A DNA stretch of 32,000 nucleotides from positions 960,001 through 992,000 of the forward strand of contig OY782392.1 in assembly GCA_963677765.1 (NCBI GenBank), given 5' to 3'. The notes beneath the pieces are model-generated. The model saw only the letters and a program-made list of their open reading frames with translations, was not told the DNA's origin and ran no database searches. A program made the translations under genes and the position numbers. This stretch comes from Candidatus Saccharimonadota bacterium. GTDB taxonomy: Bacteria; Patescibacteriota; Gracilibacteria; BD1-5; UBA6164. How positions within the stretch are numbered: position 1 is the first letter of the stretch; every line of letters begins with the position of its first letter. Below, piece by piece: positions 5,933 through 30,585 of the stretch.

Positions 5933-6427
5933 TTAGTTTTGAGCATATAGTATTTTATTTAAGTCATAAGAATTTAATTTACAACTTTTTATTACACTCA
6001 AAACTTTTCTAGAGTATTTAGGATCTTCAGCATAATAACCTGCATATGAATTTATTATTTTTGGCAGGTTATAACTTTCTGATTCCAGAGTTTCTCTTAG
6101 TTTTCTATATGCATTATGATTACTTAGATTGACGAAATATGCTTCTACATTTTCTTCAACTGAATCATAAGTCATTATTTTATTTTGAGAACTCATCCCA
6201 AAATGATTATTTTGTTTTCTTGCTGCACGACTTTTACCATAGCCAGTTTCTAATATCGCTTGCGCAATTATAATAGAGTTCGGCATATTATCTGCTACCA
6301 CTCCATCTATATTTTGTCTTGTATCTTCTATTATAGAGTTCATGTAGTCAATATATTCATCATTACATGAATATGCTGCACTTGAAAACATCATAATTAG
6401 AATAGCTATTATAGTTGTTTTTTTCAT
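5933..6427 (-). CDS. Secreted glucosaminidase-family (FlgJ C-terminal / Bax-like) peptidoglycan hydrolase, 164 aa
   Basis: Open under the standard code (track ORF). Signal peptide MKKTTIIAILIMMFSSAAYSC (possible lipoprotein Cys). Core IIIAQAILETGYGKSRAARKQNNHFGM matches the AQAxLESGWGxS...NNxFG glucosaminidase pattern. AGGAG SD at 6442-6438, 10 nt before the ATG. No TGA codons; all 5 Gly are GGN. Confidence 0.8.
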   Translation of the reverse strand: MKKTTIIAILIMMFSSAAYSCNDEYIDYMNSIIEDTRQNIDGVVADNMPNSIIIAQAILETGYGKSRAARKQNNHFGMSSQNKIMTYDSVEENVEAYFVNLSNHNAYRKLRETLESESYNLPKIINSYAGYYAEDPKYSRKVLSVIKSCKLNSYDLNKILYAQN

Positions 6428-6516
6428 AGCTAGGTTTCTCCTTTGTTTTGTTTTAACACATAGGTTAAAAGATTTCAGCGACGCGATTTTATAAAAAAAA
6501 AATTTAATTGCAAATA

Positions 6517-6547
6517 AAAAAGATATTTTTATTAAAAATATCTTTTT
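6517..6547 (-). terminator. Hairpin terminator after the dcd pair
   Basis: Perfect 14-bp arms aaaaagatattttt / aaaaatatcttttt with a 3-nt loop, 4 nt after the stop at 6551-6553. Confidence 0.55.
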
Positions 6548-6550
6548 ATA

Positions 6551-7066
6551 TTAAAAATCCATATGTGATTTTGAGGAAATTATACCATTTCATTCACTAT
6601 ATTTTCATTTGTAAATATCTATTTCTCATTTTGTTTCCCAGAAACTTACTTGTCATATTTTCATACCTGGATAAATTTTTACAGGAAGAGTGGCAAATAA
6701 TTGTAAAGTTGAGTTTCCATAGTATCATGTATCAATCAAATCAGCAGTTATATGTATAAATAATCATAATCTTGCTACTCATGATTTATTATGAATTAGG
6801 GGAGTATATTTCGTACTTCAAAATTTTTCTTTAGTAGAGGCTAATACAAATTCTCATCTTTCTAATAATAATCATTCTTCTGGTATGTTAATTATTTCAT
6901 ATTCATTATCCTTTTTACTGTCTAAAGTATTATTTTTATATTTTAAAACTTGATTTCATAACCTAACATCGTAAGAGTTTGTATTTATATTAGATTCATC
7001 AAAGTTTTCTATTTTTATATTTCAAGAATTAACTTCTTTTATTATTTCTTTTCAGGTTAATATCAT
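6551..7066 (-). CDS. dCTP deaminase/dUTPase-family paralogue B (171 aa) with Gln at the presumed catalytic Glu position
   Basis: ATG 7066-7064, TAA 6553-6551, 516 nt. MILTGKEIIKEV...NTNSYDVRLG...NKSGVARLGLFIHITADLIDTGYYGNSTLQLFATLPVKIYPGMKIGQVSFWE follows the Dcd pattern. The TLE motif reads TLQ (CAA at 6703-6701). Confidence 0.8.
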
Positions 7067-7072
7067 ATTTTT

Positions 7073-7573
7073 TTATTTAATAAGTAATGACTCTTGTGGT
7101 TTTGAGAAATTTTTATAATTTCATTGATATAATTCAGCATCTCATTTTTTATCCCAAAATGAAACTTTTCATGCTATCATTCATGGATATACAATTACAT
7201 CTTTTGTAGGGTATATTTCTAATGTCCAACTATGAGATGTTCATATATGTCACATATTTGCTGATAATTGCATAAATAGTCATAATCTTCACATGTCAGA
7301 ATTTCATATAAGAGAACTCATAAATTTTGTACTACCTATATTTTCTATTGTAACTCAGAGATACATATAACCCTTTTTTAGAGTATATCATGTTTCTGGT
7401 ATTTCAACATCTTTGAATATTGGTTTTTCTCAATCAAATCAATCATATACTTTTAGATGACTAGCTAATCTATAGTTATAACTATTGGTATTCAATTGTT
7501 TTATATCAAATGGTTCTATTGTTAGATTACCATTTTTTATTTCTTTAATAATTTGTTTTCAACTTAAAATCAT
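7073..7573 (-). CDS. dcd: dCTP deaminase-family paralogue A (166 aa)
   Basis: ATG 7573-7571, TAA 7075-7073, 501 nt. MILSGKQIIKEIKNGNLTIEPF...NTNSYNYRLA...GNSDMGRLGLFMQLSANMGHIGTSHSWTLEIYPTKDVIVYPGMIAGKVSFWD. The conserved Glu is retained (GAA at 7219-7217). Confidence 0.85.
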
Positions 7574-7595
7574 AATATATTTGATAAGTTTTAGG

Positions 7596-7655
7596 ATTGT
7601 TAATATAACAATTTTATTGTTAATATAACAATTTTATTGTTATTAGTCAATATTT
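7596..7655. promoter_or_regulatory. Tandem 20-bp units, each with a TTGTTA-N3-TAACAA inverted repeat (candidate operator) upstream of dcd
   Basis: attgttaatataacaatttt occurs perfectly twice (7596-7615, 7616-7635), followed by a degenerate third copy (attgttattagtcaatattt). Located 23-80 nt upstream of the dcd A start codon. Confidence 0.4.
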
Positions 7656-7666
7656 ATTGTATAAAA

Positions 7667-7691
7667 AAAGCCCATTATAAAAATGGACTTT
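7667..7691 (-). terminator. Possible terminator of the Dps-like gene
   Basis: Imperfect hairpin aaagcccatt / aatggacttt (one mismatch, 5-nt loop), 8 nt after the stop at 7699-7701. Confidence 0.35.
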
Positions 7692-7698
7692 TAAAATA

Positions 7699-8052
7699 TT
7701 ATTTTAAAAATGCTTTAGAGCTTCATTCTATATCTTCTAAATCATTAGCTAATGAACCAAGTAAATCTTCAGTTCATAATGTAATTTCATTATTTCTAGC
7801 ATAATTTTCTATTTCTTGTCTAAGCTCTTTTATAATATCATGAGCTCTTTGTTTTTTTTCTTCTAAGCTAGAACTTTCTAATTCACCACCTAAATCAGCA
7901 TGTTTTTCACCTATTTTATGAGCAACTTCAAACAATGTTTCATAGAAACCTTCATTTTCTTTATGAAAATCTGCGTCTTTAGTTTTTGTATCAATATGGA
8001 TTGTGAACATTTCAAGATATGCTTTTAAAGCTTTTTTATGTAATTCTTTCAT
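7699..8052 (-). CDS. Short ferritin-like / Dps-like four-helix-bundle protein (117 aa)
   Basis: Track ORF 7774..8052 continues through TGA to TAA at 7701-7699 (354 nt). HIDTKTKDADFHKENEGFYETLFEVAHKIGEKHADLGGE and the C-terminal GTEDLLGSLANDLEDIEGSSKAFLK resemble Dps helices (fHW..G..F..lHe.fe..y......D.iAERi..LGG ; D..t.dll...l.e.ek..W.l.a.L). Shorter than typical Dps, so the family call is tentative. Confidence 0.5.
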
Positions 8053-8080
8053 AATTATTTAAAATTATATGATAAATTTA

Positions 8081-8101
8081 TAATGAGAATTATTCTCATT
8101 A
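8081..8101. promoter_or_regulatory. Fur-family (Fur/PerR/Zur-type 7-1-7) box-like perfect palindrome upstream of the Dps-like gene
   Basis: taatgagaat-t-attctcatta is a perfect 10-1-10 palindrome. Its core TGAGAAT-T-ATTCTCA (8084-8098) differs from the Bacillus Fur 7-1-7 consensus TGATAAT-n-ATTATCA at one position per half-site. It lies 29-49 nt upstream of the ATG (8052), just upstream of a TATAAT (minus strand, 8069-8064). Confidence 0.45.
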
Positions 8102-8141
8102 AGTTTAGTATATTCTTTTTATTACTTAAGTCAAATTATTT

Positions 8142-9197
8142 TTAGTCAAAAAGATCTATTATATTTTTTATAGAGTATTCTATTTTTCAATGATCTTTTA
8201 ATTCTATAAGAATAACAGGAATTTTATATTTTTCATATATATATGTTTCCATAGTTCAAGTGTATTCTCATATTCATCATTCATCTATTTCATATAATTT
8301 TATTTTGTTTTGTTTTTGTTCTGAGTTTAAATAATTTGTATCAAAATCATATCATGGTAGTTTCTCTGCTATTTCATTTCAAAACTTAATAACATTATCA
8401 TCATCAAAAGAATTATCTGGTAAAAATAGTATATTTCATTTAGAATGAAGTGATATTATTTTTTTGAAGTTATAATTTTTTATTAGATCAGTTATTATTT
8501 TTGTTTCTATTTGATCATTACATCAATTTATTCAAGTAAGTACTGTATATCAGTTTTTTTCAAAACTTTTTAGTTCATAATTTCTAGTACAAAAATTTCT
8601 ATTTAGATCTACATTATTTTTATTTACTCTTCATTCAAGGTAGGCAGCATATTTTTTATCACTTTCTAAATAATACTCTAATCAATCAGGATTAATTGTA
8701 GGAATAATAAACCATCATGTTTTTTCACTATTATATAATTCTTTTAATAGATATCTTGCTGTATTATATGTTCAATACTCATATCATCCATGTATATTAG
8801 AAAAGACTCAAAAATAACCATTTTTTGGATCTCATTTATAATAGGCATATATATCTTGATTATTTTTTGATTCTCAAATCTTAATCTTTTGTATTTTTGA
8901 ATAAAACTCTTTTCTTTCTTCTCTTGTTTTTTCTAGTGAATATTCAAATAATTTTATTAGTTTATTTATTTTTTCTGACTTGTTATTTTTTTGATTTAAT
9001 TTTCTTTTTAGCTCTATATAAGCACTTTCTTTTTTATCAAAATCATTTCACCATTTTTTATTAAAGCTATTGTTTATTATATCATATGCTTGATTAAAAG
9101 AATAATCTTTTCAAGATATATTTATTGTTTCATTAGCAAATGAAACTCATGGAATTATTAGTAAAGTAATTATTATTATTTTTATTCTCTTAAACAT
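8142..9197 (-). CDS. Secreted M14-family zinc carboxypeptidase-like protein (351 aa)
   Basis: ATG 9197-9195, TAA 8144-8142, 1056 nt. Signal peptide MFKRIKIIIITLLIIPGVSFA. Motifs SNIHGGYEYGT, IIPTINPDGLEY, NNVDLNRNF and IISLHSKGN match M14 hallmarks (NPDG, VDLNRNF, third His). The HxxE spacing looks atypical (HGGYE). The start overlaps the rsuA-like stop by 8 nt. Confidence 0.75.
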
Positions 9198-9885
9198 TTT
9201 CTAAATAGTTAATTTCATTTTTATTTAAATATCTCCATTCTCATTCTTTTAAGTCTCAGATATTTATTTCTCATATACTTATTCTATGTAGATTTACAAC
9301 TTCATTTTTTACAGCAATTAACATTTTTTTTACTTGATGAAATTTTCATTCACTTATAGAAAGTTCTATTTTATAATCATTTATTTTTTTTACTTTTGCT
9401 GGTTTAGTTATATAGTCATCTATTTTTAGTCATTTTTCTAGTTTATCTATTGACTTTTGATCTATAACTTCTTTTGTATCAACTATATATTTTTTAAATA
9501 TATCTTTTTTTGAATTTATAACATTATGAATTACTTTTCATTTATTTGTCATTAATATTAATCAAGTTGTATCAACATCTAATCTTCACATAATTTCTAC
9601 TATTTCATCATATGGGCATCATTCTAATAATACCTTACATGATTTATATCAAGCTTCATCAATATTACTTGAAATATAGTTTTTTGGCTTATTTAAAATA
9701 ATATATATATCTTCTATATATTCTAGTTTATATTCTCATATTTGTATTTCATCTCAAATATTTATTTTATATTCTCATGATGTAATTAATTCTCAATTAA
9801 CAAAAACTATATCATTTTTTATATATTTTTTTAATTCTTTTCTACTTCAAAATCAAAGGTTTGATAAATACTTATCTATTCTCAT
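9190..9885 (-). CDS. rsuA: RsuA/RluB-family pseudouridine synthase with N-terminal S4 domain (231 aa)
   Basis: ATG 9885-9883, TAA 9192-9190, 696 nt. MRIDKYLSNLGFGSRKELKKYIKNDIVFVNGE (S4 domain), the catalytic motif GRLDVDTTGLILMTNKGKVIH, and KYIV...EGKFHQVKKM. Confidence 0.85.
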
Positions 9886-10026
9886 TACATTTTTTATTTA
9901 AAATCTATTTTGTTTTTTTATTATACTTAAAATAAAAACCTTATAAAAATATTTATTTAAAAATATTTGACTTTTTAAGAAAATATTTTATTATCTAATC
10001 TCATAAAAGGAGGAAAGGACTGTGAT

Positions 10027-10206
10027 ATGTTGATACTTACTAGAAAAATTGGCGAAACATTTTTCGTAGGAGATGATGTCACTGTAACAGTTTTGTCTGT
10101 AAAAGGTGACCAAGTTCGTATAGGTGTTAATGCACCTAAAGGTGTTACTATCAACAAAGAAGAAACTTATGTTGAAAGGATTAAACGTGCAGATAAAAAA
10201 AGTTAA
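10027..10206 (+). CDS. csrA: Carbon storage regulator CsrA/RsmA (59 aa)
   Basis: [59 protein letters not shown]. About 34 of the first 48 residues match E. coli CsrA as I recall it. The GGA-rich leader aaaAGGAGGAaAGGAc (10004-10019) contains an SD. No TGA; all 5 Gly are GGN. About 33% G+C by hand count. Confidence 0.9.
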
Positions 10207-10222
10207 CTCAGTTCTTATTTGA

Positions 10223-10260
10223 AAGAGAGATATGTAAAAATATCTCTCTTTTTTATTTTT
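10223..10260 (+). terminator. Intrinsic terminator of csrA
   Basis: 10-bp stem aagagagata / tatctctctt with an 8-nt loop, followed by ttttattttt. Confidence 0.7.
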
Positions 10261-10324
10261 CTTTTGAATAATAAATAAAAATATATAATATTATTTTACT
10301 TTTTAATTGTTATAATAATTATAT

Positions 10325-10618
10325 ATGGCAAAGACTTTTATAGATTGAGCTAGTTCAAAAGCAATAAATGGTCCTTATGGAGAATTTTTTAATATAAGTT
10401 TTAATCTTGAAAAATTACAAGAATATGCTAATGAAAAATGATATGTAAATCTTACTATGAGCAAAAGAAAAGAAGTATGACAATATTGAGATACTCATTA
10501 TTTTACTTTAAATGACTGGAATCCAGAAAATAGTAATAATAATCAAAACTCTTCTCAAGATCAAAATAATACTAATTCTTGAGCATGAGATATTTCAGTT
10601 GAAGATATTCCATTTTAA
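10325..10618 (+). CDS. Small protein with an SSB-like disordered linker and acidic C-terminal tip ..VEDIPF (97 aa)
   Basis: ATG 10325, TAA 10616-10618, 294 nt. MAKTFIDGASSKAINGPYGEFFNISFNLEKLQEYANEKGYVNLTMSKRKEVGQYGDTHYFTLNDWNP, then the N/Q/S-rich linker ENSNNNQNSSQDQNNTNSGAG, then DISVEDIPF. Uses TGA for several Gly. The core does not resemble the canonical SSB OB sequence to my eye. Confidence 0.6.
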
Positions 10619-10620
10619 TA

Positions 10621-10654
10621 AAAAGAGTATAATCATATATGATTATACTCTTTT
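10621..10654. terminator. Palindromic bidirectional terminator
   Basis: Perfect 16-bp arms aaaagagtataatcat / atgattatactctttt separated by 2 nt, between convergent genes. It touches the minus-gene stop at 10654-10656. Confidence 0.55.
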
Positions 10655-10998
10655 TATTTGATTATTTTTTCTACTTTATCTTTTACTTTTGATACTATTA
10701 AATTTGGATCTATTTCTTCTATAAATGTTTTTAAAAATACTCATCAACTCATATTTAAACTAATTTGTTTTCAGTTATCATTTGTTACTATATATTCAAC
10801 ATTATGAGTTTTATTTTGTGATTCATCTTTTAATTCTAGTTTTGTTATTGTAATTGTATCTCATTTTTCAAAAGTAGAGTTATCAACAGCCAATGCTTGT
10901 ATGTTTTTAGATAATCTAAAACTCATTGAATCAGATAATTTTATGTTTTCAAGAGTTTTTTTAGTTGAGTAGTCTGATTTATTTATATGTTGTTTCAT
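10654..10998 (-). CDS. Hypothetical protein (114 aa)
   Basis: ATG 10998-10996, TAA 10656-10654, 345 nt open with TGA read as Gly. MKQHINKSDYSTKKTLENIKLSDSMSFRLSKNIQALAVDNSTFEKGDTITITKLELKDESQNKTHNVEYIVTNDNGKQISLNMSGGVFLK... No family recognised. Confidence 0.55.
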
Positions 10999-11131
10999 TT
11001 TTTATATTTAATTTGTATTAATTATAAATATAAAATATTTAGTTGTTATGTCAATTTTTTATAACAATATCTTGATTATCTCTATATTTTTTTTATAATA
11101 ACGAAGCATTATTTACAAGTAATAATATATT

Positions 11132-11719
11132 ATGAAATCGAGAATTAATAAACTATTAGCAGAAATAGAACAAAAAAGAAAAGAATTATTAGAAGAATAT
11201 TCTAAACTAATGGAAAAGTATGATTTTTCATTTATAAAATGAAAAATTGTTTTTTCAAAAGAAGCTAGACTTAGAAACAAACAAAAAAGAAAATCATTTT
11301 TTAATAGTATATTTAACGCTAGGGTTAGAGATTTGTTATCTATTCCTTTTATTTACTCTATGATTATACCAGCAGTTATATTAGATATATTCTTATTTAT
11401 GTATCAACAAACTGCTATAAGATTATACTGAATACCTCTTGTAAAAAGATCTGATTATATAATTTTTGATAGAAGACATTTAGATTATTTGAACTGGATT
11501 CAAAAAATTAATTGTTTATACTGTTCTTATGTAAATTGATTGTTTTCTTATGCAGTTGAAGTAGCTTGAAGAACAGAAAAATATTGGTGTCCTATAAAAT
11601 CAGCACAAAAAATTAAATGATGACATTATTGGCAAAAACATTTTGCGGATTATTGAGATGCAGAATGATTTAGAGATTGTTTTACTTCTACTAAAGAATT
11701 TTACAATGAAAAAAAATAA
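11132..11719 (+). CDS. Membrane protein with CxxC...WCP...C motif (195 aa)
   Basis: ATG 11132, TAA 11717-11719, 588 nt. N-terminal coiled segment, hydrophobic hairpin LLSIPFIYSMIIPAVILDIFLFMY, then INCLYCSYVNGLFSYAVEVAGRTEKYWCPIKSAQKIKGGHYWQKHFADYGDAEGFRDCF. Looks like a conserved uncharacterised family, but I cannot name it. Confidence 0.65.
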
Positions 11720-11739
11720 AAGAAGACTTGTCTTCTTTT
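11718..11739. terminator. Bidirectional hairpin between convergent genes
   Basis: aaaagaaga-cttg-tcttctttt overlaps both stop codons (11717-11719 plus, 11740-11738 minus). Confidence 0.5.
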
Positions 11740-13234
11740 ATTTTTTTAATGCATAATCAAATAATTGAATTATAGCTTCTCTTGGTGATTCAGCATCTCT
11801 AACTATAGTTTTTCTATTTATTTTTATACTAACTAATCAGTTGTTTTTTATTACACTAAATATTTTATTCTCATTTCATCTTACTAATCTAGTTTCTTGA
11901 ATACTATTTAACATATTTGAGTATTTTCATTCTTTTAGAACTCTATCTCTAAGAGCTTTTATTATTTCTTTTTCTTCACTTAAAAGATATGTTCATATTA
12001 TCCACATCCAATCTCATCTTTTAGTTGAATTATTTATTGTATCAATAATTTCCTCTCTTATTTTTTCAGGTAGTTTTAATCATTTTTTTACACCTGTTTT
12101 TATATGATCTTTTATTTGATTTATACTTTCTTCTACTTCTTCGCAGTTTTCTTTTACTTTTGAATATCTTTTCATAACTTTTTCTTCAAAATGATATCAT
12201 TTTTCTAAAAAATATATCCTGTTTAATTGTTGATTTAGATATCTGTTAACTATTTTTCTTAAATCTTCATTTGTATATGGTTGTTCATCAGATCTTAAAA
12301 AAGCTTTTAATTGTCTATGTAGTATAAAATCTAGATATCTTCTCATAGGAGAAGTAAAATGAGTATAATTATCTTCTTTTAATCAAAAATGATATTCCAT
12401 TTTATTTGAATAATAAGCTCTTTCTAATTGTTTTGGTGTATAATCTTTTCATTTTAATCATACCATATGATTTCTATAAACTCATGTTTCTGGGTAGTTT
12501 ATCATTTGAAATTTTGCTGTTTCAACATTTGCGGCAACCATGAACTCTTCTATAAGTCTAGATGCTATATTTTTTCAGTTTAGATTATCTTTTTATATTC
12601 ATCTTTCTGCTTCATCAAATTCTATTATTCATTTTGATAATCTTTTTTCTCTTAGTTTTTTTGCTATTTCATCTTGAAGTCTAAGTTGCTCATGGAAAGG
12701 ACTTTCTTCATAAAAATATTGATCTCTAAATTCTTCATAATCAAATCTTTTTCTATTTATAAATTTTGATTCATAGAAACTTGAATTAATAACATTCATT
12801 TGATTATCATAATCTATTTGTACTGTTTGTGATAATCTACTTGTTTGATCATTTAGAGAAATTATATCTGTTGCAAGTTCTCTAGGTAGCATATAGATAG
12901 TTTTTTCCTCACCTAAATAAATACTAGTTCATTTGTTCATAGCATCTATATCTATAGGGGATAGTATTGGTATAAATTCTGTAGGGTCAGCTATTGATAT
13001 AAAAATAGTATATCATCAGTCTTTTCTTTTTTCTGCCCAAATTCAATCATCTAGGTCTTTACTTTCTCTTGCATCTATTGTTATTCATTCAATTAGTTTT
13101 CTAGAAGGAGCTTGATCATTTATTCCGTTTTTTAATATATCTCTAACTTGATTTTTAGTCTCATTTGTATATCAAAATGGTAGACCAGAATTAATTCTAG
13201 GTATCAGATTATCTGGAAAGTTTTCTAATCTCAT
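11738..13234 (-). pseudogene. RNase II/R-family (RNB domain) exoribonuclease interrupted by a single in-frame TAA at codon 214
   Basis: ATG 13234-13232, terminal TAA 11740-11738, 1497 nt in one frame. RNB motifs lie on both sides of the internal TAA (12595-12593). Upstream: ITIDARESKDLDDGIWAE, ISIADPTEF, TSIYLGEEKTIYMLPRELATDIISLND. Downstream: [47 protein letters not shown]. Local context is ..[25 protein letters not shown].. Lacks the CSD/S1 domains of full-length RNase R. Confidence 0.75.
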
Positions 13235-13277
13235 AAATAAATAGTTATAGTATTTTTCTTACTATAACTATTTATTT
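13235..13277 (-). terminator. Long hairpin terminator after tatD
   Basis: Perfect 18-bp arms aaataaatagttatagta / tactataactatttattt with a 7-nt loop. It exactly fills the gap between the tatD stop (13278) and the RNB gene start (13234). Confidence 0.5.
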
Positions 13278-14093: not shown

Positions 14094-14113
14094 AATTATT
14101 ATTTATCAAATAA

Positions 14114-14729: not shown

Positions 14730-16592
14730 TTATATTATTGAATGATTTTCAAGTGTTTCTATTTGAGATTTATTTAGTATAAGTTTTAGTTCTTCTTTTT
14801 CAATCTCTCTTAGTTTTTCTATATTTCAGTATTTTTTTAATATTTTAGCTCTAGTTTTTGGTCAAAATCAAGGTAATTCATCAAGTATATTTTTTTTCAT
14901 TGATTTTATTCTTGAATCTCTATTAAATGTTATAGCAAATCTATGAGCTTCATCTCTTATTTTTTGTACCAATCTAAGTTCACTAGAGTTTCTTTCTAGC
15001 ATTATTAATTCAAAAATTCAATCTTTGAATATAAATAACTCTTCTTCTTTTTTAGCTAATCATACAAGCTGTAAGTCTTTTAATTTTCCCACTTTTTCTA
15101 TATTTTGATTAACTATTTCTAATACACTTGATAATTGTCATTTTCATCCATCAATTATTATTAAGTCTGGTATTTCTCAAGTTTTTTCTATCTCTTTTAT
15201 TCTTCTAGTCATTATTTCTCTCATAGAATCAAAGTCATTAATTTTTTGTTCTTCTAGAGTTTTTATTCTGAACTTTTTATATTTACTTGTATTACTTTTA
15301 CCATTTTCAATTATACTTCTACTCGCAACTGTATGATTTCATGATATATGACTAATATCATTACATTCAAATATTATATCTTTGTTTATTTGTTCGTATC
15401 AAAGTGAATCTAAAATATTTATCATAGTTTTTTTACTAAATCACTTAGTTGATAAAGAATTTATATGGTCTTTATAGGCATATTCATAAATATTTTTATA
15501 ACAAAGTGACAATAAATCACTTTTTACTCATATTTTTGGTGCTTGAGTTTTTATATCAATATTTCAAAAATTTATTTCAAAAGGTATAAGATATATTATT
15601 TTGTTATTAACTTCATTTGAATAAATTTTTTCTATAAAGCTTTTTATAACTTCTGTTTTATCTTCATCCAATGAATTTTTAATTTCATAATTATAAAATC
15701 AAACTATTTTAGAATCTTTAATTTCTATCATTCATATATAAAATTTATCAAATTTTTCTATATAATTTATAACATTATAGTCTCACTCTACTCAATCTCT
15801 TACTATTTGATTTTGTTCCAATGATTTTATAGATTCAAGATTTTCTTTTAGTTTTTGAGCTTCTTCGAATTTTAATTCTTTAGCTTTATTAAACATTTCA
15901 AGCTCAAGCTCTTGTTTTATTTTAGATGTATTTCATTTAAGAAAATCAGATATTTGTTCAATTTTTTGTTTGTATTCTTTTATTTTTGATAGAGATTTTA
16001 AACATGGTCAGCTACATCTTTTTATATAATAGTCCATGCAAGGAATTTTTGTTGTTCAAATATTTCATATTAATAAATTTTCATTTGAAATATTTTCAGA
16101 TTTATTTTTTAGATTAAAAGTTAAATTACAACTTCTGTATCAAAATACTTTTTTTACTAACTTTAATATATTATTAACATAGTTAGTTGATGTATATGGT
16201 CAAAAATAAATAGATCAATCATTTTTTTTGAATCTAGTTTTTATTATTTGTGGTATTAATTCTTTTGTTATTTTTATATATATATGATTTTTACCATCTT
16301 TCATCAATATATTATATTTTGGTTCATGTTTTTTTATTAGAGTTGTTTCCAGTATTAGACTTTCGGTTTCATTATTTGTTAAAATTGTTTTTATATCAAC
16401 AATCTTGTTTACCATTTTTTGTTTGGCAAAATTAAGTTTACTTTTTCAATTAAAATAAGAATTAACTCTAGATTTTAGATTGACTGATTTTCATATATAT
16501 ATAATATTTCAGTTTTTGTCTATAAACTGATATATTCAAGGATTGTTTGGTAAGTTTTTTAGTATAGATTTTAATTTATTATCTGTTGACAT
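14730..16592 (-). CDS. uvrC: Excinuclease ABC subunit C (620 aa)
   Basis: ATG 16592-16590, TAA 14732-14730, 1863 nt. GIY-YIG domain [30 protein letters not shown]...ESLILETTLIKKHEPKYNILMKD, a UVR-like helix ELEMFNKAKELKFEEAQKLKENLESI, the endonuclease region ECNDISHISGNHTVASRS and PDLIIIDGGKGQL, and a C-terminal HhH. Confidence 0.9.
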
Positions 16593-16644
16593 TTTTTTTA
16601 ATTCTTTATTATATTAATCCACAAAATTAGAAAAAGGAGTTTAT

Positions 16645-16764
16645 ATGTCAGAAAATCCATATGATTATTTAGCAGGATTTTTAGTTTTGATGTTTTTTAT
16701 CTTTGTGCTACCATCTAGTTATAATATAATATCAAAAGCTTACTCATATATAAAAAATAAATAA
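16645..16764 (+). CDS. Possible small membrane peptide (39 aa)
   Basis: MSENPYDYLAGFLVLMFFIFVLPSSYNIISKAYSYIKNK. AGGAG at 16635-16639, 5 nt before the ATG (one of only four SD sites in the window). Single TM segment, TAA stop. Short, so uncertain. Confidence 0.35.
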   Translation: MSENPYDYLAGFLVLMFFIFVLPSSYNIISKAYSYIKNK

Positions 16765-22295: not shown

Positions 22296-22296
22296 A

Positions 22297-23289: not shown

Positions 23290-23347
23290 TTTATCTTTTT
23301 TAATTTTATTGTTTCTAATATTATAAAAATTAGCTATATAGTCAAAA

Positions 23348-23383
23348 AATATGAACATTATTTATGATAATAATGTTCATATT
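23348..23383 (-). terminator. Hairpin terminator
   Basis: Perfect 15-bp arms aatatgaacattatt / aataatgttcatatt with a 6-nt loop, overlapping the stop at 23362-23364. Confidence 0.5.
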
Positions 23384-24207
23384 CATATAAGTATAGTTAT
23401 AGATATTGTAATAAAAAGTTCTTTTTTTGTAGGTTTATTTTTAAAAACTATAAATGCTATTATCATACTAATAGCTAAATAAATCATTCATATTAGTACT
23501 GTTTGAACTATTCATAGCTCTTTTATTAGAAATAATGTTATAAATGTTACACTTATCCATACTATATTTTCTAATAATATAAAACTAGACATTTTCTTGT
23601 TTATTCTTTTATAGCTATATATTTCTTTTGCTAGTATTATTATGATTAATAATATAATTGTTTTTATAAAGCTAGAATAAAACATTATTGATAATTCACT
23701 TATACTAATTAGTACAAATCAATATATTATAAATTTTGTTGCTTGCATAAATGATGATATCATTAATGCTAAACAATATTTATTAAACTTTATATTTTTG
23801 AAATTAATAGAACCTACTACTAAAATACTTCATGCTATAATAGCAAGTATAAATGTTATTATAGATGATTCTCAAAAAATAAAAAATCATAGCAATATAG
23901 CAAAAATTGATTGAAATTCTCAATAGGGAATTAATATACTCATTTTTTCATTTTTGTAGGCATATTGTTCAAATAATTCAGCTATTATATTTATAGATGA
24001 AGTAATTATTAATAAAATAAGGATTTTTAAATTTATAATTTCAAAACTATAAAATATATATGATATAGGTAATATAAGTAACATAAAAAGATTTCAAATA
24101 AATTGATAGTATTTATCTGAAATTTTTCACTTTGAAAGCATAACTGATTTTTTGTATATATTATCTCATATAGCTGATAATATAGCACTAATTATTCAAT
24201 ATATCAT
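23362..24207 (-). CDS. Polytopic membrane protein, EamA/DMT-like transporter (281 aa)
   Basis: ATG 24207-24205, TAA 23364-23362, 846 nt. About 9-10 hydrophobic segments in two similar halves. The family assignment rests on architecture only. Confidence 0.55.
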
Positions 24208-24247
24208 TTTTTTTTAAATTATTTATATTATTTTATCATTTAATTAA

Positions 24248-24281
24248 AAAAGAAACAAGATTATTTAATCTTGTTTCTTTT
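24248..24281 (-). terminator. Hairpin terminator
   Basis: Perfect 15-bp arms aaaagaaacaagatt / aatcttgtttctttt with a 4-nt loop, overlapping the stop at 24261-24263. Confidence 0.5.
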
Positions 24282-24560
24282 GTTTACAAACTCTAAAAAA
24301 TTATCATCTGGAGCTATTTTGTTTAATATCTCTTTTTCGCATTTTTTGCATTTATGCTTTATCATCCATCATTTATTTTTTTTGTAATCAATATCTATAG
24401 GTTCCATTATTGATAAACATTCACTACTTCTATCTCAAGGATAATCTTTATCTAGATGTTTTGAATGTAAGCAATGAGGACAATGATTTCTAGCACTTCA
24501 TTCAGGATGTTTTTCAATTTGTTTTCAACAGTTTTCACATGTAAAACTATCATTTATCAT
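24261..24560 (-). CDS. RNHCP-domain zinc-ribbon protein (99 aa)
   Basis: ATG 24560-24558, TAA 24263-24261, 300 nt. FTCENCGKQI...GSARNHCPHCLHSKHLD...HKCKKCEK contains the name-giving RNHCP motif plus CxxC pairs. Confidence 0.7.
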
Positions 24561-24575
24561 TTTAAATCACATAAA

Positions 24576-25616
24576 TTATTTTTGTAATATATAAAACATA
24601 ACTCAAAAAATAGAAAAAATTATTCATATTAACCATAATCTGAATACTACATTTTCTTCAGACCAACCTATAGCTTCAAGGTGGTGATGAAATGGTGCGA
24701 TTTTAAAAACTTTTTTACCATTTCTAAGTTTTTTGCTAGTTAATTGAATTATAACTGATATAGTTTCAAATATAAATATTGCTCATACAATAAATAATAT
24801 GAATATTGTATTTGTTAGCATCGCCATAATTCATAAGTTAGCTCATAATGCAAGGCTTCATACATCTCACATATAGAATTTTGCTGGTTTAACATTAAAC
24901 CATAAAAATGCTACTAAAGCTCATATAATTGTTATACATAAAGTTGATAATAAAAACATTCATTGATCATATGTAATATAAGCATAAACACTATAAGCAA
25001 ACAATAACAATCATCATGCTAATCAGTCTAATCAATCTGTTATATTTACACTATTTGCAGATGCTATTATAACAAATATAAACAAAGGTATAAAAAATAA
25101 TCCTAGTGATATTCATTCTCAAATTCATAAATTTAATGCTACATTTCACCAATCTAGTTTAAAGTAAAACCATAATGATCATAATAAAGCAAATAGAAGT
25201 AACCATATCATTTTGAACTTTGCTGATATTCATTTTGTTCTTCATATTCATTTTATATTCATATAATCATCAATCATTCATAAGAATCATACTGATGCTA
25301 ATGTAAATAATGATAAATATGTTTCTTTTTGATTTAGTAGACTATTATTAATTAATCCTATTTTTTGAAATATAATACTTATAAGTACCATAAAAAAAGT
25401 TATTACTAGTATCATTACTCATCACATAGTAGGTGTTCAAACCTTTTTTTTATGTAATTTTAAGAATTCTACAGCTTTTCACATAGTGGCTTCTTCTCTA
25501 ATTTGTTTTCAAAGCTTAAAATTTATTAAAAAATTTATGAAATATGGCATTGTTATCATTCATATAACATATGTTATGATTCAGAATGAAAACATTAAAA
25601 CTAAATATGAACTCAT
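24576..25616 (-). CDS. mraY: Phospho-N-acetylmuramoyl-pentapeptide transferase (346 aa)
   Basis: ATG 25616-25614, TAA 24578-24576, 1041 nt. GTPTMGG, GMIDDY, ANSVNITDGLDGLAGG, FYMGDVGSLALG, APFHHHLEAIGWSE. Most conserved Gly are TGA, while the conserved Trp is TGG. Confidence 0.9.
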
Positions 25617-25741
25617 CTTTTCTTTTTTAAAAAATACTTGAATTAGTTTATAAAAAAGTCTTAGTTTTACAAGTTTACTTTACAAAAAAGAATTAAGGAC
25701 TAAACTATCTTTCATATTAATTTTTAAAAAATTATCTAAAA

Positions 25742-26428
25742 ATGGAATTAACAAAAGTTATAATTACCGCTATGAAGGAAGAAGCTGATTTAATAATAAA
25801 AAAGTTTGATTTAAAAGAAGAAAAAAAACTAAAAAATATATCTATATATGAATGATATAGGGATTTAGATTGAGAAAAAGAAAAAATAGTATTAGCTTTG
25901 TCTTGAATATGAAAAATCCAATCTTCTATTGCTACTACTTACCTTTTTGAAAATTATCAAATAGATAAATTAGTTAATATAGGTATTGCTTGAAGCCTTA
26001 ATAATATGGATGTAAAAGTAGGAGATGTATATTTACCAAATACTTTTGTTCAACATGATATGTATTTACCTTTTGAAGGGGAACATCTTGATTATGCTAA
26101 AAAACCTATATTTTTAAACTATGCTATATGAGAAAATATAGATTTAAATAAATTTGGTTTAGTTTTAAACTGAGTCTGTGCAACCTGAGATGAATTTGTT
26201 GATAACGAAGATAGAATTAATGACTTAAATAATTCATTTGCTGCTGATATATGTGAAATGGAAGCATTTTCTGTCTTATCTGTAGCAAGAGAGTATGATT
26301 CTTTGGATAAATGTGTTGTAATTAAAGCTGTATCTGATTGAGCTGATAATGATGCAAAAGATGATCATATGAATAATTTGGATTTTGCTATGAATAATAG
26401 TATTTGAGTTTTAGAAATTGTATTATAA
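25742..26428 (+). CDS. mtnN: MTA/SAH nucleosidase (PNP_UDP_1 family), 228 aa
   Basis: ATG 25742, TAA 26426-26428. VIITAMKEEADLI, IVLALSGIGKIQSSIATTYL, VNIGIAGSL, VGDVY, ICEMEAFSVLSVA, IKAVSDGAD. Confidence 0.8.
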
Positions 26429-26456
26429 AAGACTAGATAATTTTATCTAGTCTTTT
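26427..26456. terminator. Palindromic bidirectional terminator
   Basis: aaaagactagataa-tt-ttatctagtctttt overlaps both convergent stop codons (26426-26428 and 26458-26456). Confidence 0.55.
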
Positions 26457-27130
26457 TAGTATTTTTCAGTATATATTGATTCTTTATTAAATCATTTATT
26501 TATAAGTAATTTTTCTGCTGAGTCTATCATAGCAGGTATTCAACATATATAGAATTCTTCATAATTTTTTATAGTTTCTTTGTTTAGAAAATCTGTTACA
26601 TATCATTTATTATACTTATTTGATTCAGATGAAGTATATATATAAAAATCAAAATTATTATGTTTTTCTTTTAATTTTTTTAGTTGTTCTATATAAAATA
26701 GATCTTTTTCTTCTCTTGTTCAAAAAATAAGTGTAAAGTTGCATTCTAGATTATTCTCTAATCATCATATTATTTGATTATATAGTGGGACAAATCATGT
26801 TCATGTTCATAAAAATAATTTATTTTTATTTGAGTTGTTAAGAATAAAATGCCCTGCAGGTCAAACTCATCTTACTTTGTCTCAAGTATTTAGTTCACAT
26901 AAAAATTTACTACCTCATCTTCATCATTCGTTTAGTTCCCGTTTTTTTATAATAAGAGTTATTTCTTTTCAATTATTTTCTAATATGGAATAAGCTCTTC
27001 AACCAATATTTAATAAAAATGTTATAAATTGTCATGATTTAAAGCTAAACTCTTTTTCTCACTTAAATATTAATTCATATACATTATGAGTTAAGTTTGA
27101 TTTTTTTATTAATTCAAATTCTTGTATCAC
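26456..27130 (-). CDS. Ferredoxin-reductase-type FAD/NAD(P)-binding oxidoreductase (224 aa)
   Basis: GTG 27130-27128 (no in-frame ATG before the upstream TAA), TAA 26458-26456, 675 nt. SGQFITFLL..GGRAYSI (RxYS FAD motif), GGRGGSKFLCEL, VRGVGPAGHF, LFLGTGTGFVPL, ICGIPAM. Confidence 0.75.
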
Positions 27131-27192
27131 TTTTAATATTATTAATCATTATTAATTTATTTATAATTATTTTAGTATTAAAATCAAAAAAT

Positions 27193-27240
27193 AAAATATA
27201 AAAATACTTATAAATAAAACTATAAGTATTTTTATATTTT
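27193..27240. repeat. Perfect 20-bp inverted repeat in a divergent intergenic region
   Basis: aaaatataaaaatacttata (27193-27212), an 8-nt loop, then tataagtatttttatatttt (27221-27240). It lies between two divergently transcribed genes, so it terminates neither. Confidence 0.6.
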
Positions 27241-27360
27241 AAAATAATTATTTATGTAATATTAAATAAATAAGTCAAAGGTTTTTTCCTAAATAGTTTT
27301 TATTTATTTCTTAGTAGGATATACTTTTATTACTATTTTATTCTTTTTATATATTTTTTT

Positions 27361-30234
27361 ATGCAAAAAATTTATAAAATATTGGCAATATTAATGATAT
27401 TTTTTGTAGGTATTTTTCCTATAACGAATACATTTACTGCTGATTATACATGATACAATGTCTCTCCCGACATGGAAAATGTTCCATATCAAAATAAACT
27501 TGATTTATTTTTAAATAAAGTTTTAGAGTCTAGAAAAGATTTTACTAGTGAAAGAAATTATTTGGTTTTTGTTTCTAAAATAGAAACTAAATTAAATAAT
27601 CTTAATTCTAGTTATTCATGAAATGAAGAAATTAAACAAATGCTTGTTTATTTAGAAGAATGAATTAAAAATATTAGAAATATATCTAATCAAAATTGAG
27701 AATTAGATGACTTTTTTTGTGAATTATTCTGAGATTGTGATAATGTTAGTTGATCAACTATTGATAATTCATCTAGTACGGTTTCTACAGATACAAACAC
27801 AAATACAAGTAATAACAATAATTCTAATACAAATAATAATATAAATAGTTGTAAATGATATTGGGATAAACAATGAGGTGATATATTTTTAAGTGTAAAA
27901 AGTGACACTCCTGTTTTGGTTAAAAATAATATAAAAATAGATACTAGTAAACAATGTTTAGATTTATGTTTACAATCTTGATGAAGTAGTAATGAAAGAA
28001 AAGTTTGTGAGTTTAATTGACAAATAATTAAAAATGTAAGCACTAACACAAATACAAATACTAATACTAATACTAATACTAATACTAATACTAATACTAA
28101 TACTAATACTAATACTAATACTAATACTAATACTAATACTAATACTAATACTAATACTAATACTAATACTAATACTAATACTAATACTAATACTAATACT
28201 AATACTAATACTAATACTAATACTAATACTAATACTAATACTAATACTAATACTAATACTACAGAATATAATTATTTAAAATATTTATGAGTTAAATCAT
28301 ATAGTTGATGAGATTTTGATACTTTCAAGGTTAATATAAATTGATTTGAAGGTTGTAGTATATATAACTGTAGTTGATCAAGTGTTCCTACAAGAAATGA
28401 AAACTGAACTATAATAAGTTCATGTAATTGAACTACATCTACTAGTTGAGCAGAAAATAAATCTTTTGATAAGGAATTTATAGATACACAAAGAAGTAAT
28501 GATAATTATATTTCTATTCAATGTTACAGAGAATCATATATGAAGGATTGAAAAAAATATTATCAAACTAGCTCATGAGAATATATTTTAAATCCAACTA
28601 AAATTAGTGATATAAAAAGATCTCAAATTAACTTTAGTTGATTATCACAACCAACAAACACTTCAAATACTAATACAAATACAAACACAGATACAAATAC
28701 AAACACAGATACAAATACTAACACAGATACAAATACTAACACAAATACTAACACAAATACTAACACTAACACAAACTCTAATACTAATACTAATTCAACT
28801 GAAAGAGTTTTATCTTCATGATTTTGAAAAGTTGTTGAATATTATACTTGTTGAACTACTGAAACATGACCAAGTAAGAGAACTTATTTCTTTGATAAAG
28901 AAAAATGGGATTCTAGAAGTTCAGGTTCTATAGATGGTTCTAAATGACCTTGGATGAGTTGTGATTCTTGTTCATCTAGTTCTTCAGCTAATACACTTTG
29001 TTGAAATGATAAAATAACTGAATCAAGTAATGATTCATATACTAATATTTCTACTTCTCAAACATCAGTTAATATATCAAAAGAAACAGTTCCTAATTGA
29101 TGAGGTATAGTTACTTTGTATTGATATATTAAATCATGAGATAGTTGTAGATTATCATACTCTACTAAATGATCATGATGATCTAATTGATTAGTTGCAT
29201 GAAGAACTTTTTCTGCTACATACTTTGTTACTTCTAGTAGTTCTATAAGTGTAAATTGTAGTTCAAATAACTATAATTTTAAATTTATAGAAGAATGAGT
29301 TACAGGCGTTATGTGTGAATGATGAGAAAGTATTTGATGACATCAAATGACTGCATGAGAAAAATGATCTGTTGTAGAAAAAGTATTAGTTACATCAGAT
29401 TCTAAATGATATTATAGACAAACAACAAGCTTTAGATGTAATAATAACTTAACTTGGGAAATGGTTTCTTGAACTCAAGTTAAAAAATATACTAGTTGTA
29501 AAAGCTGATATACTTTATCTTGAACAAGCTGTATAATTTCAAGTTCTACTAGTACTCAATCTTCTTGATGAACAACTAATACTTCTAACACTGAAGAAAA
29601 ATTATGTTATATATATAAGTCTAATAATAATTGAACAACTTCAAGTATGGAAAGATGGTTGAGAACTAAATCTTACTGTGAAAATGAATGTAATAAAGCT
29701 GATACATCTTATACTTGTAAATGGGGTGATTCTGTAATCAGAAATTGAGTTAGTAGTTCTAAAACATTTTCACAAGCAGAAGTAAATACTTATGTTTACA
29801 ATGTATGATTGAGTAGTTATTATACTATTGCTACTGCTGTAAAAACTTTTGAATCACAATGATATACTTGAGTAAGATCACAAGTTGCTACCGCTATTTG
29901 ATTAAGTGAATCAGATGTAACTTGATATATTAATTGAATAAATTCAGGTACTATAAAAAAAGCAAATAATGATTTAAATTGTAGTATTGCAAAAGATCAA
30001 ATTTGAAGACTTTATTATAATGCATGAAGATGTCCTGATACATGATGATATAATTATTGGAAATGAGAACTATCAAAGTCTTCAATAACAGAAGTTACTA
30101 CACATTTTAACTGAGCTCTAGCTAGAGATTGCTTAGAGAAAACTTGAACAACTGATAAAACTATTTGTTTTAATAAAATGTTTTGTCCAACTTGATATAC
30201 TTATATTCCAAGAACTGACTCTTGTAGTAAATAA
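27361..30234 (+). CDS. Large secreted Cys-rich protein with three Thr/Asn(Asp) low-complexity linkers (957 aa)
   Basis: ATG 27361, TAA 30232-30234. The frame was checked codon by codon from 28261 to the end. Signal peptide MQKIYKILAILMIFFVGIFPITNTFTA. Dozens of Cys with recurring C-x2-GY-x6-C-like elements (SCKSGYTLSGTSC, FCPTGYTYIPRTDSC). Many N-x-S/T sites. No family recognised. Confidence 0.75.
28057..28260 (+). repeat. Perfect hexanucleotide microsatellite (AATACT)x34, in frame = (Asn-Thr)34
   Basis: 204 nt with no deviation from the 6-nt unit. Starts in phase with the ORF (28057-27361 = 696). Preceded by imperfect ACT AAC ACA AAT ACA units. Confidence 0.95.
28654..28800 (+). repeat. Imperfect Thr-Asn/Asp dipeptide repeat (degenerate ACN AAY/GAT units)
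   Basis: aca aac act tca aat act aat aca aat aca aac aca gat aca ... aat act aat tca act. 49 codons, same dipeptide theme as 28057-28260 but with many synonymous and N/D substitutions. Confidence 0.8.
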
Positions 30235-30259
30235 AAAAACACCTTTTATAGGTGTTTTT
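30235..30259 (+). terminator. Intrinsic terminator of the 957-aa gene
   Basis: aaaaacacct-tttat-aggtgttttt immediately after the stop. Confidence 0.65.
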
Positions 30260-30268
30260 TTGTAAAAT

Positions 30269-30297
30269 AAAAAGCCACTTATTATAAGTGGCTTTTT
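30269..30297 (-). terminator. Intrinsic terminator of the 63-aa gene
   Basis: Perfect 13-bp arms aaaaagccactta / taagtggcttttt with a 3-nt loop, 19 nt after the stop at 30316-30318. Confidence 0.65.
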
Positions 30298-30315
30298 AAG
30301 ATCAACGGATAAAAC

Positions 30316-30507
30316 TTATACTTTTATCCCTTGATCTCTTAGCTCTTGCTCATAGATTCTTTTTCTCTCTTCAGGATTTGGGATGTCTTGTTTGAAACTT
30401 CTACCTGTAGCTTCTTGGTATTTTTTGTTGTGACGATCCTTCCAGTGAGAGAATTTATTCCAGTTGCTTTGCAGACCTAGGTCCTCTTTTGTTTGCGAGT
30501 CGAGCAT
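30316..30507 (-). CDS. Hydrophilic 63-aa protein of unknown family in a self-contained expression cassette
   Basis: Track ORF MLDSQTKEDLGLQSNWNKFSHWKDRHNKKYQEATGRSFKQDIPNPEERKRIYEQELRDQGIKV. AGGAG at 30519-30515, 7 nt before the ATG. About 39% G+C (75 of 192 by hand count). No TGA; uses codons rare elsewhere in the window (CTC, GAC, TCG, CTG). Confidence 0.7.
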   Translation of the reverse strand: MLDSQTKEDLGLQSNWNKFSHWKDRHNKKYQEATGRSFKQDIPNPEERKRIYEQELRDQGIKV

Positions 30508-30555
30508 GATATTTCTCCTTTTTGATTGATGTTTACCCTCATGTGGGTATTATCT

Positions 30556-30585
30556 ATTATATATGAATTATCCTTGATTTGTCAA
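30556..30585 (-). promoter_or_regulatory. Near-consensus sigma70 promoter for the 63-aa gene
   Basis: Minus strand TTGACA (30585-30580), an 18-nt spacer, then TATAAT (30561-30556). Alternatively a 16-nt spacer to TATATA. Predicted 5' UTR of about 40 nt containing a short stem tacccacatgagggta. Confidence 0.55.

Follow-up and report, generated by a model that had tools for sequence, protein, structure and literature searches.

Shine-Dalgarno-led, TGA-free genes as a minority class in a Candidatus Gracilibacteria genome that reads TGA as glycine

In a 32,000-nucleotide stretch of a Candidatus Gracilibacteria genome (contig OY782392.1 of assembly GCA_963677765.1, positions 960,001 to 992,000 of the forward strand; hereafter the window), four genes are set apart by two features at once: a clear Shine-Dalgarno (SD) motif ahead of the start codon and a complete lack of TGA, which is otherwise the prevailing codon for glycine. 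They encode a glucosaminidase, a CsrA family protein, a helical protein of 63 amino acids (aa) and, if it is a gene at all, a hydrophobic peptide of 39 aa; the remaining 31 genes of the window start without an SD motif. The same two features go together in related loci, and composition, synteny and conserved signals indicate that they mark a discrete class of accessory, compositionally foreign-looking cassettes equipped with signals of the standard bacterial type, of which csrA at least was inserted. That this class is clade-wide and was acquired from organisms using the standard code is, in our estimate, somewhat better than an even bet.

Two traits in four genes

The presence of TGA at universally conserved glycines, namely in the Walker A motif GEPGTGKT and in the NITDGLDGLAGG motif of MraY, implies that the window has to be read in genetic code 25, with TGA as glycine. 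With TGA as a sense codon the window (22% G+C) holds 53 open reading frames (ORFs) of at least 100 aa, as compared with 10 under code 11, and TGA accounts for 5.3% of its codons, all GGN for 0.9% and TGG for 0.6%. The gene set used here comprises 35 genes, called with no stops other than TAA and TAG; scans of the window for tRNAs and Rfam families were negative. The contig from which the window comes measures 1,048,296 bp.

Only four of the 35 starts (glucosaminidase, csrA, the 39-aa ORF and the 63-aa gene) have an AAAGGAG-type site 5-13 nt before the ATG, and there are no intermediates. When duplex energies were computed against the canonical 16S tail, in place of the organism's own 16S 3' end, the four SD starts reached -8.4 to -10.7 kcal/mol and the other 31 were weaker than -2.5 kcal/mol; even a 3-mer (GAG) was found at only one of the 31. 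The pentamer AGGAG is about as frequent as composition predicts (18 copies on both strands of the window), and all four of its intergenic copies are placed 5-13 nt upstream of an ATG, the expectation for 35 upstream windows of 20 nt being ~0.2 (Poisson P ~5e-5). The motif thus precedes all four genes, and it is conserved in the orthologues of three. As for glycine, the four SD genes use 14 GGN codons and no TGA, versus 73 GGN and 500 TGA (87% TGA) in the other genes (P ~3e-13). Their G+C content is 0.28 (glucosaminidase), 0.33 (csrA), 0.39 (63-aa gene) and 0.22 (39-aa ORF), that of the genome being 0.22. An earlier note on this stretch, made from its letters alone, had listed these four sites, the want of anti-SD complementarity at the other 31 starts, the coding of glycine mostly as TGA and the absence of TGA from the four SD genes, all of which the duplex energies and codon counts bear out. 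Its statement that GGA is scarce needs tempering, because GGA is indeed depleted on the + strand but only mildly (119 observed versus 146 expected).

How the other genes start

Across 360 gene starts, taken from the window and from the low-G+C loci of 21 relatives (among L016-L047), positions -20 to -1 contain only 2-8% G, with A enriched at -3 (0.65) and at -10/-11 (0.63-0.66) and T at -1, a context resembling the Kozak-like, SD-independent initiation of Flavobacterium johnsoniae (PMC6847099). In 256 upstream regions of the clade, hexamers like a -10 box are most frequent 27-35 nt ahead of the ATG, so that leaders should measure roughly 20-28 nt and most mRNAs should not be leaderless; promoters would then sit at a nearly fixed distance from the start codon and leaders would be short. 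The earlier suggestion of short or leaderless mRNAs therefore survives in its first half, while mostly leaderless mRNAs are ruled out by the position of this peak. The TATAAT cited as an example, ahead of the Dps-like gene (8069-8064), is real; a second hexamer, TATAAA, 24 nt upstream of the same ATG, is equally plausible.

The two traits in related loci

A UvrC-based scan of reference genomes gave 33 related loci (47-79% identity), belonging to Candidatus Gracilibacteria, Candidatus Peribacteria or the Patescibacteria group. Among 591 simple ORF calls from these loci and the window, 560 have no SD motif, 12 a 4-mer and 19 AGGAG or GGAGG. When the comparison was limited to the 22 loci of low G+C and, within them, to genes that have 55 aa or more and no fewer than three glycine codons, nine of the ten SD genes were TGA-free, versus 10 of 357 non-SD genes (odds ratio ~312; Fisher p = 3e-12; Mann-Whitney p = 2e-7), so that the relation between SD presence and TGA usage holds across relatives as well. 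In the non-SD genes of the 22 loci the median share of TGA among glycine codons is 0.80. Several of the TGA-free genes that miss the strict SD pattern have G-containing purine leaders (e.g. AAGGGAG, AAAGGGA, GAGAGGGA, AAAGGGG), and the link is therefore probably tighter than these figures suggest.

Other lineages have SD-led, TGA-free small genes of their own at other positions, most of them without a Pfam match; a Pfam search with ten further SD-led or TGA-free genes of the relatives returned only PyrF and a weak, sub-threshold EAD9 match. The gene for PyrF (OMP decarboxylase; L025, 20718-21521) has 15 GGN and no TGA codons, 36% G+C in a contig of 25% G+C, and no SD. It is probably another acquisition from a standard-code organism, and with it the TGA-free state is seen to occur without an SD. 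What was already known is that SD motifs are scarce in sister lineages, that TGA-free phages exist and that SD-poor Bacteroidia have rare genes with a strong SD; we came across no paper in which the presence of an SD is connected with the avoidance of UGA in chromosomal genes of code-25 bacteria.

The glucosaminidase gene

The gene for a 164-aa, lipoprotein-type glucosaminidase (5933..6427, - strand; PF01832 at 77 bits) has five GGN and no TGA codons and a G+C content of 0.28. Its AAAGGAG motif (6438..6444, -) lies 10 nt before the ATG at 6427, with a predicted duplex of -8.9 kcal/mol; further upstream are a palindrome, TTTTAACCTATGTGTTAAAA (6451..6470, -), and a promoter-like TTTGCA-N17-TAAAAT (6486..6514, -), the latter a consensus match only, and the gene is followed by an intrinsic-terminator hairpin with a 10-bp stem and a T-run (5903..5927, -). 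Terminator-like sites number three in a 4.6-kb region, versus 0.2 expected.

Orthologues at 41-85% identity are all TGA-free, and SD-like leaders recur among them (AAAAAGGAG in L083 and L084, AAAGGAA in L085, AAGGGTGAT in L087, GGAG in L017). The glucosaminidase genes of the window, L017, L083-L085 and L087 contain 35 glycine codons, none of them TGA, whereas flanking ORFs on the same contigs contain 106 TGA and 42 GGN; the codons for the conserved glycines 62, 64 and 77 vary among GGA, GGC, GGT and GGG. The gene adjoins dcd in L083 and L084 and is syntenic by position in L017, on which grounds it is not, as far as synteny can tell, a recent gain. Synonymous divergence is 0.34-0.48 as compared with 0.24-0.31 in neighbouring native genes, the glucosaminidase itself standing at 0.39-0.41 and dcd at 0.28-0.31. 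A recent transfer that has not yet ameliorated is ruled out for the glucosaminidase by its synteny and by a deep divergence through which it has stayed without TGA.

The orthologues all measure 164 aa, with a conserved Cys after a hydrophobic, lipoprotein-like N-terminus. The public call of the gene (P0124) is 152 aa long and starts from an internal Met, so that the ATG behind the SD and a portion of the signal peptide are left out. A TTTAAC...GTTAAA palindrome is kept in the leaders of the window, L083 and L084, ~10-20 nt upstream of the SD and with differing loop sequences; an operator and an RNA hairpin are both conceivable. The neighbouring dCTP deaminase (DCD) genes are tandem paralogues (6551-7066 and 7073-7573), a pair conserved in L001, L036 and L084.

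The 63-aa gene

The gene for the 63-aa helical protein (30316..30507, -; three GGN, no TGA, G+C 0.39) has a consensus promoter, TTGACA-N18-TATAAT (30556..30585, -), conserved in L011, L013 and L015, and at the predicted 5' end of the mRNA a hairpin, TACCC-N6-GGGTA (30534..30549, -), the fold of the whole 62-nt leader being -7.7 kcal/mol. AAGGAG (30515..30520, -) lies 7 nt before the ATG at 30507, with the same spacing in the same three relatives, and a terminator hairpin conserved in the orthologues, AAAAGCCACTT...AAGTGGCTTTT (30270..30296, -), follows the gene. Orthologues whose flanks have diverged keep the promoter, the TACCC...GGGTA hairpin, AAGGAG-N7-ATG, 39-43% G+C and the absence of TGA. 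Homologues of the protein are very few (three among 5.8e9 proteins; 10 matches in 1.8e9 cluster representatives); it has no Pfam or NCBIfam match, and its AlphaFold model (pLDDT 80) has no Foldseek match in the PDB, nor did an exhaustive profile search point to a function. Scans of viral contigs for this gene and for the glucosaminidase found no homologues.

The csrA cassette and the 39-aa ORF

csrA (10027..10206, +) encodes 59 aa with five GGN and no TGA codons (G+C 0.33). The protein passes the CsrA family models (PF02599, 71.4 bits with a cut-off of 27; NF002469, 87.3 with 73; TIGR00202, 77.6 with 70.1), of which NF002469 is the gammaproteobacterial equivalog model. Its promoter, TTGACT-N16-TATTAT (9967..9994, +), is conserved in the cassettes of L036 and L016, the common form being TTGAC(T/A)-N16-17-TATTAT. 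The leader element AAGGAGGAAAGGA (10007..10019, +) combines AAGGAGG (10007-10013), 13 nt from the ATG at 10027, with a second AGGA (10016-10019) 7 nt from it, for a predicted duplex of -10.7 kcal/mol; the relatives have AAGGAGAAGAGGA (L036) and AAAAAGGAG (L016). In the terminator hairpin (10221..10252, +), compensatory changes in L036 and L016 keep the stem.

Promoter, SD, ORF and terminator form a unit of ~330 bp between rluB and g10325, a conserved gene for a 97-aa protein. In alignments this unit occupies the gap only in the window, L036 (csrA at 16416-16595) and L016 (15948-16127) and is absent from L017, L020, L043 and L047; in L019 the flanking genes are adjacent, with no match to csrA. 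The CsrA of the window is 61% and 37% identical to the two syntenic copies, the flanking genes being 77-79% identical, so that csrA evolves much faster than its neighbours. Among the protein matches listed, one is at 98% identity and the next are at 66-77%, and all the named CsrA proteins among them are gammaproteobacterial, including those of Pseudomonas and Methylococcales; viral contigs, too, encode CsrA, in one case with 33% G+C and an AAAAGGAG leader. In hand alignments L036 CsrA shares ~81% of 48 aligned residues with its E. coli counterpart, to which it is closer than to the window copy, and the window protein reads VTINKEETY where that of E. coli reads VSVHREEIY, that is, with R44K and I47T. 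Arg44 of the E. coli protein, a key RNA-binding residue, is kept in L036 and L016. Taken together, the matches and the gap comparison show a csrA of the gammaproteobacterial or phage type that was inserted into conserved synteny.

The 39-aa hydrophobic ORF (16645..16764, +; one GGA, no TGA) is of uncertain status as a gene. A promoter-like TTGACA-N18-TATATT (16586..16615, +; 11 of 12 consensus positions), which overlaps the uvrC start codon, and an AAGGAG (16634..16639, +) 5 nt before the ATG (duplex -8.4 kcal/mol) are, with the ORF itself, all that speaks for its reality; no public assembly annotates it as a gene, and tblastn found no match in relatives. The ORF fills a gap between uvrC and g16793 that is ~10 bp wide in most relatives, and was likely inserted there.

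Highly expressed genes of code-25 bacteria

Could an SD simply mark genes of high expression? In a set of 34 tuf contigs recovered from metagenomes (L049-L082, 33 of them clearly code 25), ten were examined gene by gene, and no SD was found on tuf, rpsJ, rplC or rplB; the other genes of the ribosomal-protein operons in these ten have two strong motifs only, one of which is lost in the L076 orthologue. Over the whole tuf-anchored set, 216 of 226 genes have no SD, and an SD-led ORFan in L065 and L079 has seven GGN and no TGA codons. This rules out that the SD marks highly expressed genes, and the possibility, envisaged in the earlier note, that SD motifs are common on ribosomal-protein genes is not realised in these code-25 bacteria.

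TGA makes up 26% of the glycine codons of tuf versus 59% in other genes of the same loci, and in some lineages only 3-5 of the 37 tuf glycines are TGA, which is evidence that UGA is selected against in this highly expressed gene of code-25 bacteria. The arginine codons of tuf are almost all AGA, CGN reaching only 4% versus 29% in neighbouring genes. tRNA genes lie just upstream of tuf in these contigs. Conserved and probably abundant products are also encoded by TGA-poor genes without an SD: the Dps-like gene of the window (7699-8052; two TGA, five GGN), a cold-shock protein gene (L035, 14997-15200; no TGA, eight GGN) and, in some lineages, the 97-aa g10325 family (L019, 15745-16029; one TGA, 5-6 GGN).

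Origin and maintenance of the class

How might such a class arise and persist? Native genes would initiate without SD pairing, from short A/U-rich leaders, and the four SD genes would be the window's sample of a clade-wide minority class amounting to ~3% of genes. Its members would be small, fast-evolving accessory genes, each bringing its own expression kit, that is, a sigma-70-type promoter, AAAGGAG 5-13 nt before the ATG and usually a hairpin terminator, and would share as coding traits glycine encoded only by GGN, more CGN arginine and more G+C. Their most likely origin would be the standard-code gene pool, either bacteria or TGA-free phages and mobile elements, from which the cassettes would have been inserted into intergenic gaps. 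In resident genes, as the orthologues show, glycine codons turn over among GGA, GGT, GGC and GGG but never to TGA, and the SD is kept. We infer that the ribosome still pairs with AAGGAG, which would give SD mRNAs unusually efficient initiation, and that messages so strongly initiated would be selected against UGA, much as tuf is in code-25 bacteria. What defines the set would then be its origin and its expression signals rather than control by CsrA.

Several lines of evidence speak for this account. Relative to other genes, the SD class has an NNC share of 0.25 versus 0.13 and an NNG share of 0.18 versus 0.11, CGN makes up 29% versus 5% of its arginine codons and GGC plus GGG 18% versus 3% of its glycine codons, and its composition is shifted in every codon family. 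Together with the low CGN of tuf, this shift points to a foreign, standard-type signature rather than to translational selection. Insertion into conserved synteny is seen for csrA and the 39-aa gap, and csrA, in contrast to the glucosaminidase and the 63-aa gene, has its closest homologues outside the clade (Gammaproteobacteria and phages, 66-77%); for those other two genes it is composition by itself that suggests a foreign origin. The view expressed in the earlier note that the four genes form a distinct, possibly co-acquired set thus finds support in the insertion of csrA, the 39-aa gap and the atypical composition of the whole class. Orthologues with as little as 41% identity have retained the SD and acquired no TGA, and this shows both traits to be under purifying selection; since both are kept at such deep divergence, recent transfer alone is insufficient.

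A number of points weigh on the other side. The homologues of the glucosaminidase and of the 63-aa gene appear to be confined to the clade and syntenic within it, so that a foreign origin, if there was one, would be old, and old residents should have ameliorated unless selection opposes it; moreover, these homologues were detected only on short metagenomic contigs, those examined being low in G+C and TGA-recoded. Genes were called by a simple longest-ORF method, by which some starts may be wrong. The tuf contigs were found by searching DNA for a P-loop pattern in which one glycine has to be TGA and are therefore a biased sample, and the tuf and ribosomal-protein loci (28-39% G+C) represent other code-25 lineages and not this genome. 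Finally, two Absconditabacteria and Peribacter, members of sister lineages, have a 16S rRNA without the CCUCC core (PMC10783764), and if the present lineage were also without it the motif could not act as an SD. No 16S or 23S gene was found in the window (Rfam) or in the related loci that were screened (conserved-site patterns with up to two mismatches). A 16S tail CCUCCUUU would support a working SD, and an SR1-like tail (CACCUUUG or CACCACCC) would mean that the motif is used by another factor. The conserved AAGGAG motifs argue indirectly for an anti-SD retained here, and a working recognition of AAGGAG would fit with the frequent absence of bS21 reported for Gracilibacteria (PMC9976891; PMC9297842).

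Alternative explanations

The plainest alternative is chance or faulty annotation, the motifs and the lack of TGA being coincidences of short ORFs. Three of the four ORFs are indeed short (39-63 aa), and the 39-aa one is unannotated and unconserved. Nevertheless, neither the placement of the motifs nor the glycine codons of the four genes is compatible with it at the P values given above, the pattern is replicated in relatives (p = 3e-12) and the motifs are conserved in orthologues, so that for three of the four genes this explanation is effectively refuted and as a whole it is hardly credible. Much more can be said for the view that these are native genes of very high expression, in which translational selection for maximal output has produced both the SD and the avoidance of TGA, with no foreign origin. 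TGA is depleted in tuf and partly so in the Dps-like and cold-shock genes (two and no TGA, respectively); the perfect consensus promoter, the stabiliser-like 5' hairpin and the strong terminator of the 63-aa gene are all conserved; and UGA is occasionally misread in a BD1-5 bacterium, according to proteomics (PMC4032931). However, the expected top expressers (tuf, ribosomal-protein, cold-shock and Dps-like genes) have no SD, the SD class uses CGN, GGC and GGG in a manner unlike tuf, csrA is demonstrably a proteobacterial-type insertion, and expression above that of EF-Tu is hardly to be expected of a lipoprotein-type cell-wall hydrolase or of lineage-specific ORFans. We regard native high expression as unlikely, if by no means far-fetched.

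Rather less probable, to our mind, is that the class has been selected for code-neutrality, such that SD-led, sigma-70-promoted, terminator-bounded and UGA-free genes can be translated in standard-code and code-25 cells alike, possibly because they circulate with or act in standard-code partners (the host bacterium, broad-host phages), or possibly because they are needed when UGA=Gly decoding fails or is compromised. TGA remains absent although synonymous sites have turned over in deeply diverged orthologues, the signals match precisely what a standard-code bacterium would need, TGA-free Gracilibacteria phages have been described, and a proteobacterial-type global regulator and a cell-wall hydrolase would have plausible host-directed functions. 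Set against this, the genes are scattered and syntenic with no recognisable mobile element, no phage or transfer genes adjoin the SD genes in the window, the scans of viral contigs returned no homologues of the 63-aa gene or the glucosaminidase, no mechanism of nucleic-acid delivery is known for the clade, and the export signal of the glucosaminidase fits secretion as a protein. Likewise improbable is the proposal of the earlier note that the GGA-containing leaders are CsrA targets and the four genes a CsrA regulon, with GGN codons being kept to supply GGA. A bona fide CsrA family protein is encoded at 10027-10206, its leader has three GGA in 13 nt, reminiscent of the autoregulation of csrA in E. 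coli, and the densest GGA clusters of the window are in the 5' part of the 63-aa gene (six in 150 nt) and in the csrA leader (four in 150 nt). Yet any AAGGAG contains the CsrA motif, and a match to A(N)GGA therefore carries no information. The csrA leader is the only one with several GGA, those of the glucosaminidase, the 39-aa ORF and the 63-aa gene having a single one upstream of the ATG; predicted folds put the SDs in unpaired RNA and not in hairpin loops; the window CsrA diverges fast and has the substitutions R44K and I47T; and the SD class uses GGT as often as GGA. SD-led, TGA-free genes exist, moreover, in relatives whose syntenic site is without csrA, as well as in further code-25 lineages. 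The L017 glucosaminidase, for example, is TGA-free and has a GGAG leader with no csrA in the syntenic gap, so that these features are independent of csrA at this locus. Neither a CsrB/Rsm-type decoy RNA nor FliW was seen in the 32-kb window (Rfam, Pfam). The regulon is thus unsupported rather than refuted, and very unlikely.

Relation to known systems

A close parallel to genes that avoid the recoded codon comes from phages. Most predicted Gracilibacteria phages have no in-frame TGA, and prophages are reported to be TGA-rich (Liu et al. 2023, PMC10746230), and such TGA-free phages are a plausible reservoir of, or vehicle for, the SD genes. The code-11-compatible phages and the present class have in common that they lack in-frame TGA while living with a code-25 host; they differ in that the SD genes here are single chromosomal cassettes in conserved synteny, and no phage or mobile-element hallmarks (integrase, terminase, portal) flank them in the window. 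SD usage was no part of that study (PMC10746230).

As to initiation, the SD-poor Bacteroidia resemble the present case (PMC6847099, PMC9976891, PMC13000453) in that almost all genes have no SD, A is found at -3 and leaders are A-rich and unstructured, and also in that a few genes with an exceptionally clear SD form a separately controlled set, as in the autoregulation of rpsU/bS21 in F. johnsoniae. Bacteroidia do have an anti-SD, which bS21, bS18 and bS6 keep sequestered, and rpsU itself is their SD gene, whereas here the SD genes are accessory and foreign-looking, also avoid the recoded codon, and a specialised ribosome is not part of the case. The sister lineages Absconditabacteria (SR1) and Peribacter have an SD at 2-7% of genes, in keeping with the ~3% to 11% here, but have no CCUCC in the 16S tail, and the link between SD and TGA usage was not made there (PMC10783764).

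With horizontally acquired genes in general the class shares higher G+C, non-native codons, lineage-specific presence and a self-contained promoter and terminator; it departs from them in that the TGA-free, SD-led signature is seen without decay in orthologues down to 41% identity, from which selection follows and not an amelioration that is merely incomplete. Its likeness to the Csr/Rsm systems lies in the CsrA family protein, the GGA-rich csrA leader and the A(N)GGA in all four leaders, from which it is separated by the lack of a decoy RNA or FliW in the window, by GGA lying outside hairpin loops, by Lys44 and by the extension of the SD-led, TGA-free class to loci and lineages without csrA.

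Other features of the window

An RNase II/R-family (RNB) gene (11738-13234, -) is split by an in-frame TAA at codon 214 (12593-12595); L004, from a strain with 93% identity, has TGA (Gly) at this codon and encodes an uninterrupted product of 498 aa. The split would be a one-step change from TGA to TAA, reflecting either a pseudogene or a sequencing error, and illustrates the nonsense risk of TGA=Gly codons under A+T mutational pressure. The gene for a Cys-rich secreted protein of 957 aa (27361-30234) contains a 36.7-copy array of the hexanucleotide ACTAAT (28042-28261), encoding (Thr-Asn)n, and a second, degenerate array (28664-28798); the ACTAAT array is a candidate hypervariable region arising from slipped-strand mispairing, and a hypervariable gene has been reported in another Gracilibacterium (PMC6851277).

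Implications

For gene prediction, the existence of an SD class means that start-site models trained on the majority class will mis-handle it, and the public 152-aa call of the 164-aa glucosaminidase suggests that this already happens. For the biology of the group, the finding bears on the recoded stop codon, which is usually seen as a firewall against gene exchange. Its two-part signature, with the SD present and TGA absent, would mark genes of the standard-code side inside a code-25 genome and could serve to flag genes that are acquired or accessory in Gracilibacteria and Absconditabacteria. It may also help to find out whether decoding UGA as Gly carries a cost, and provide a natural test of SD pairing in an SD-poor lineage that is reported to be without bS21.

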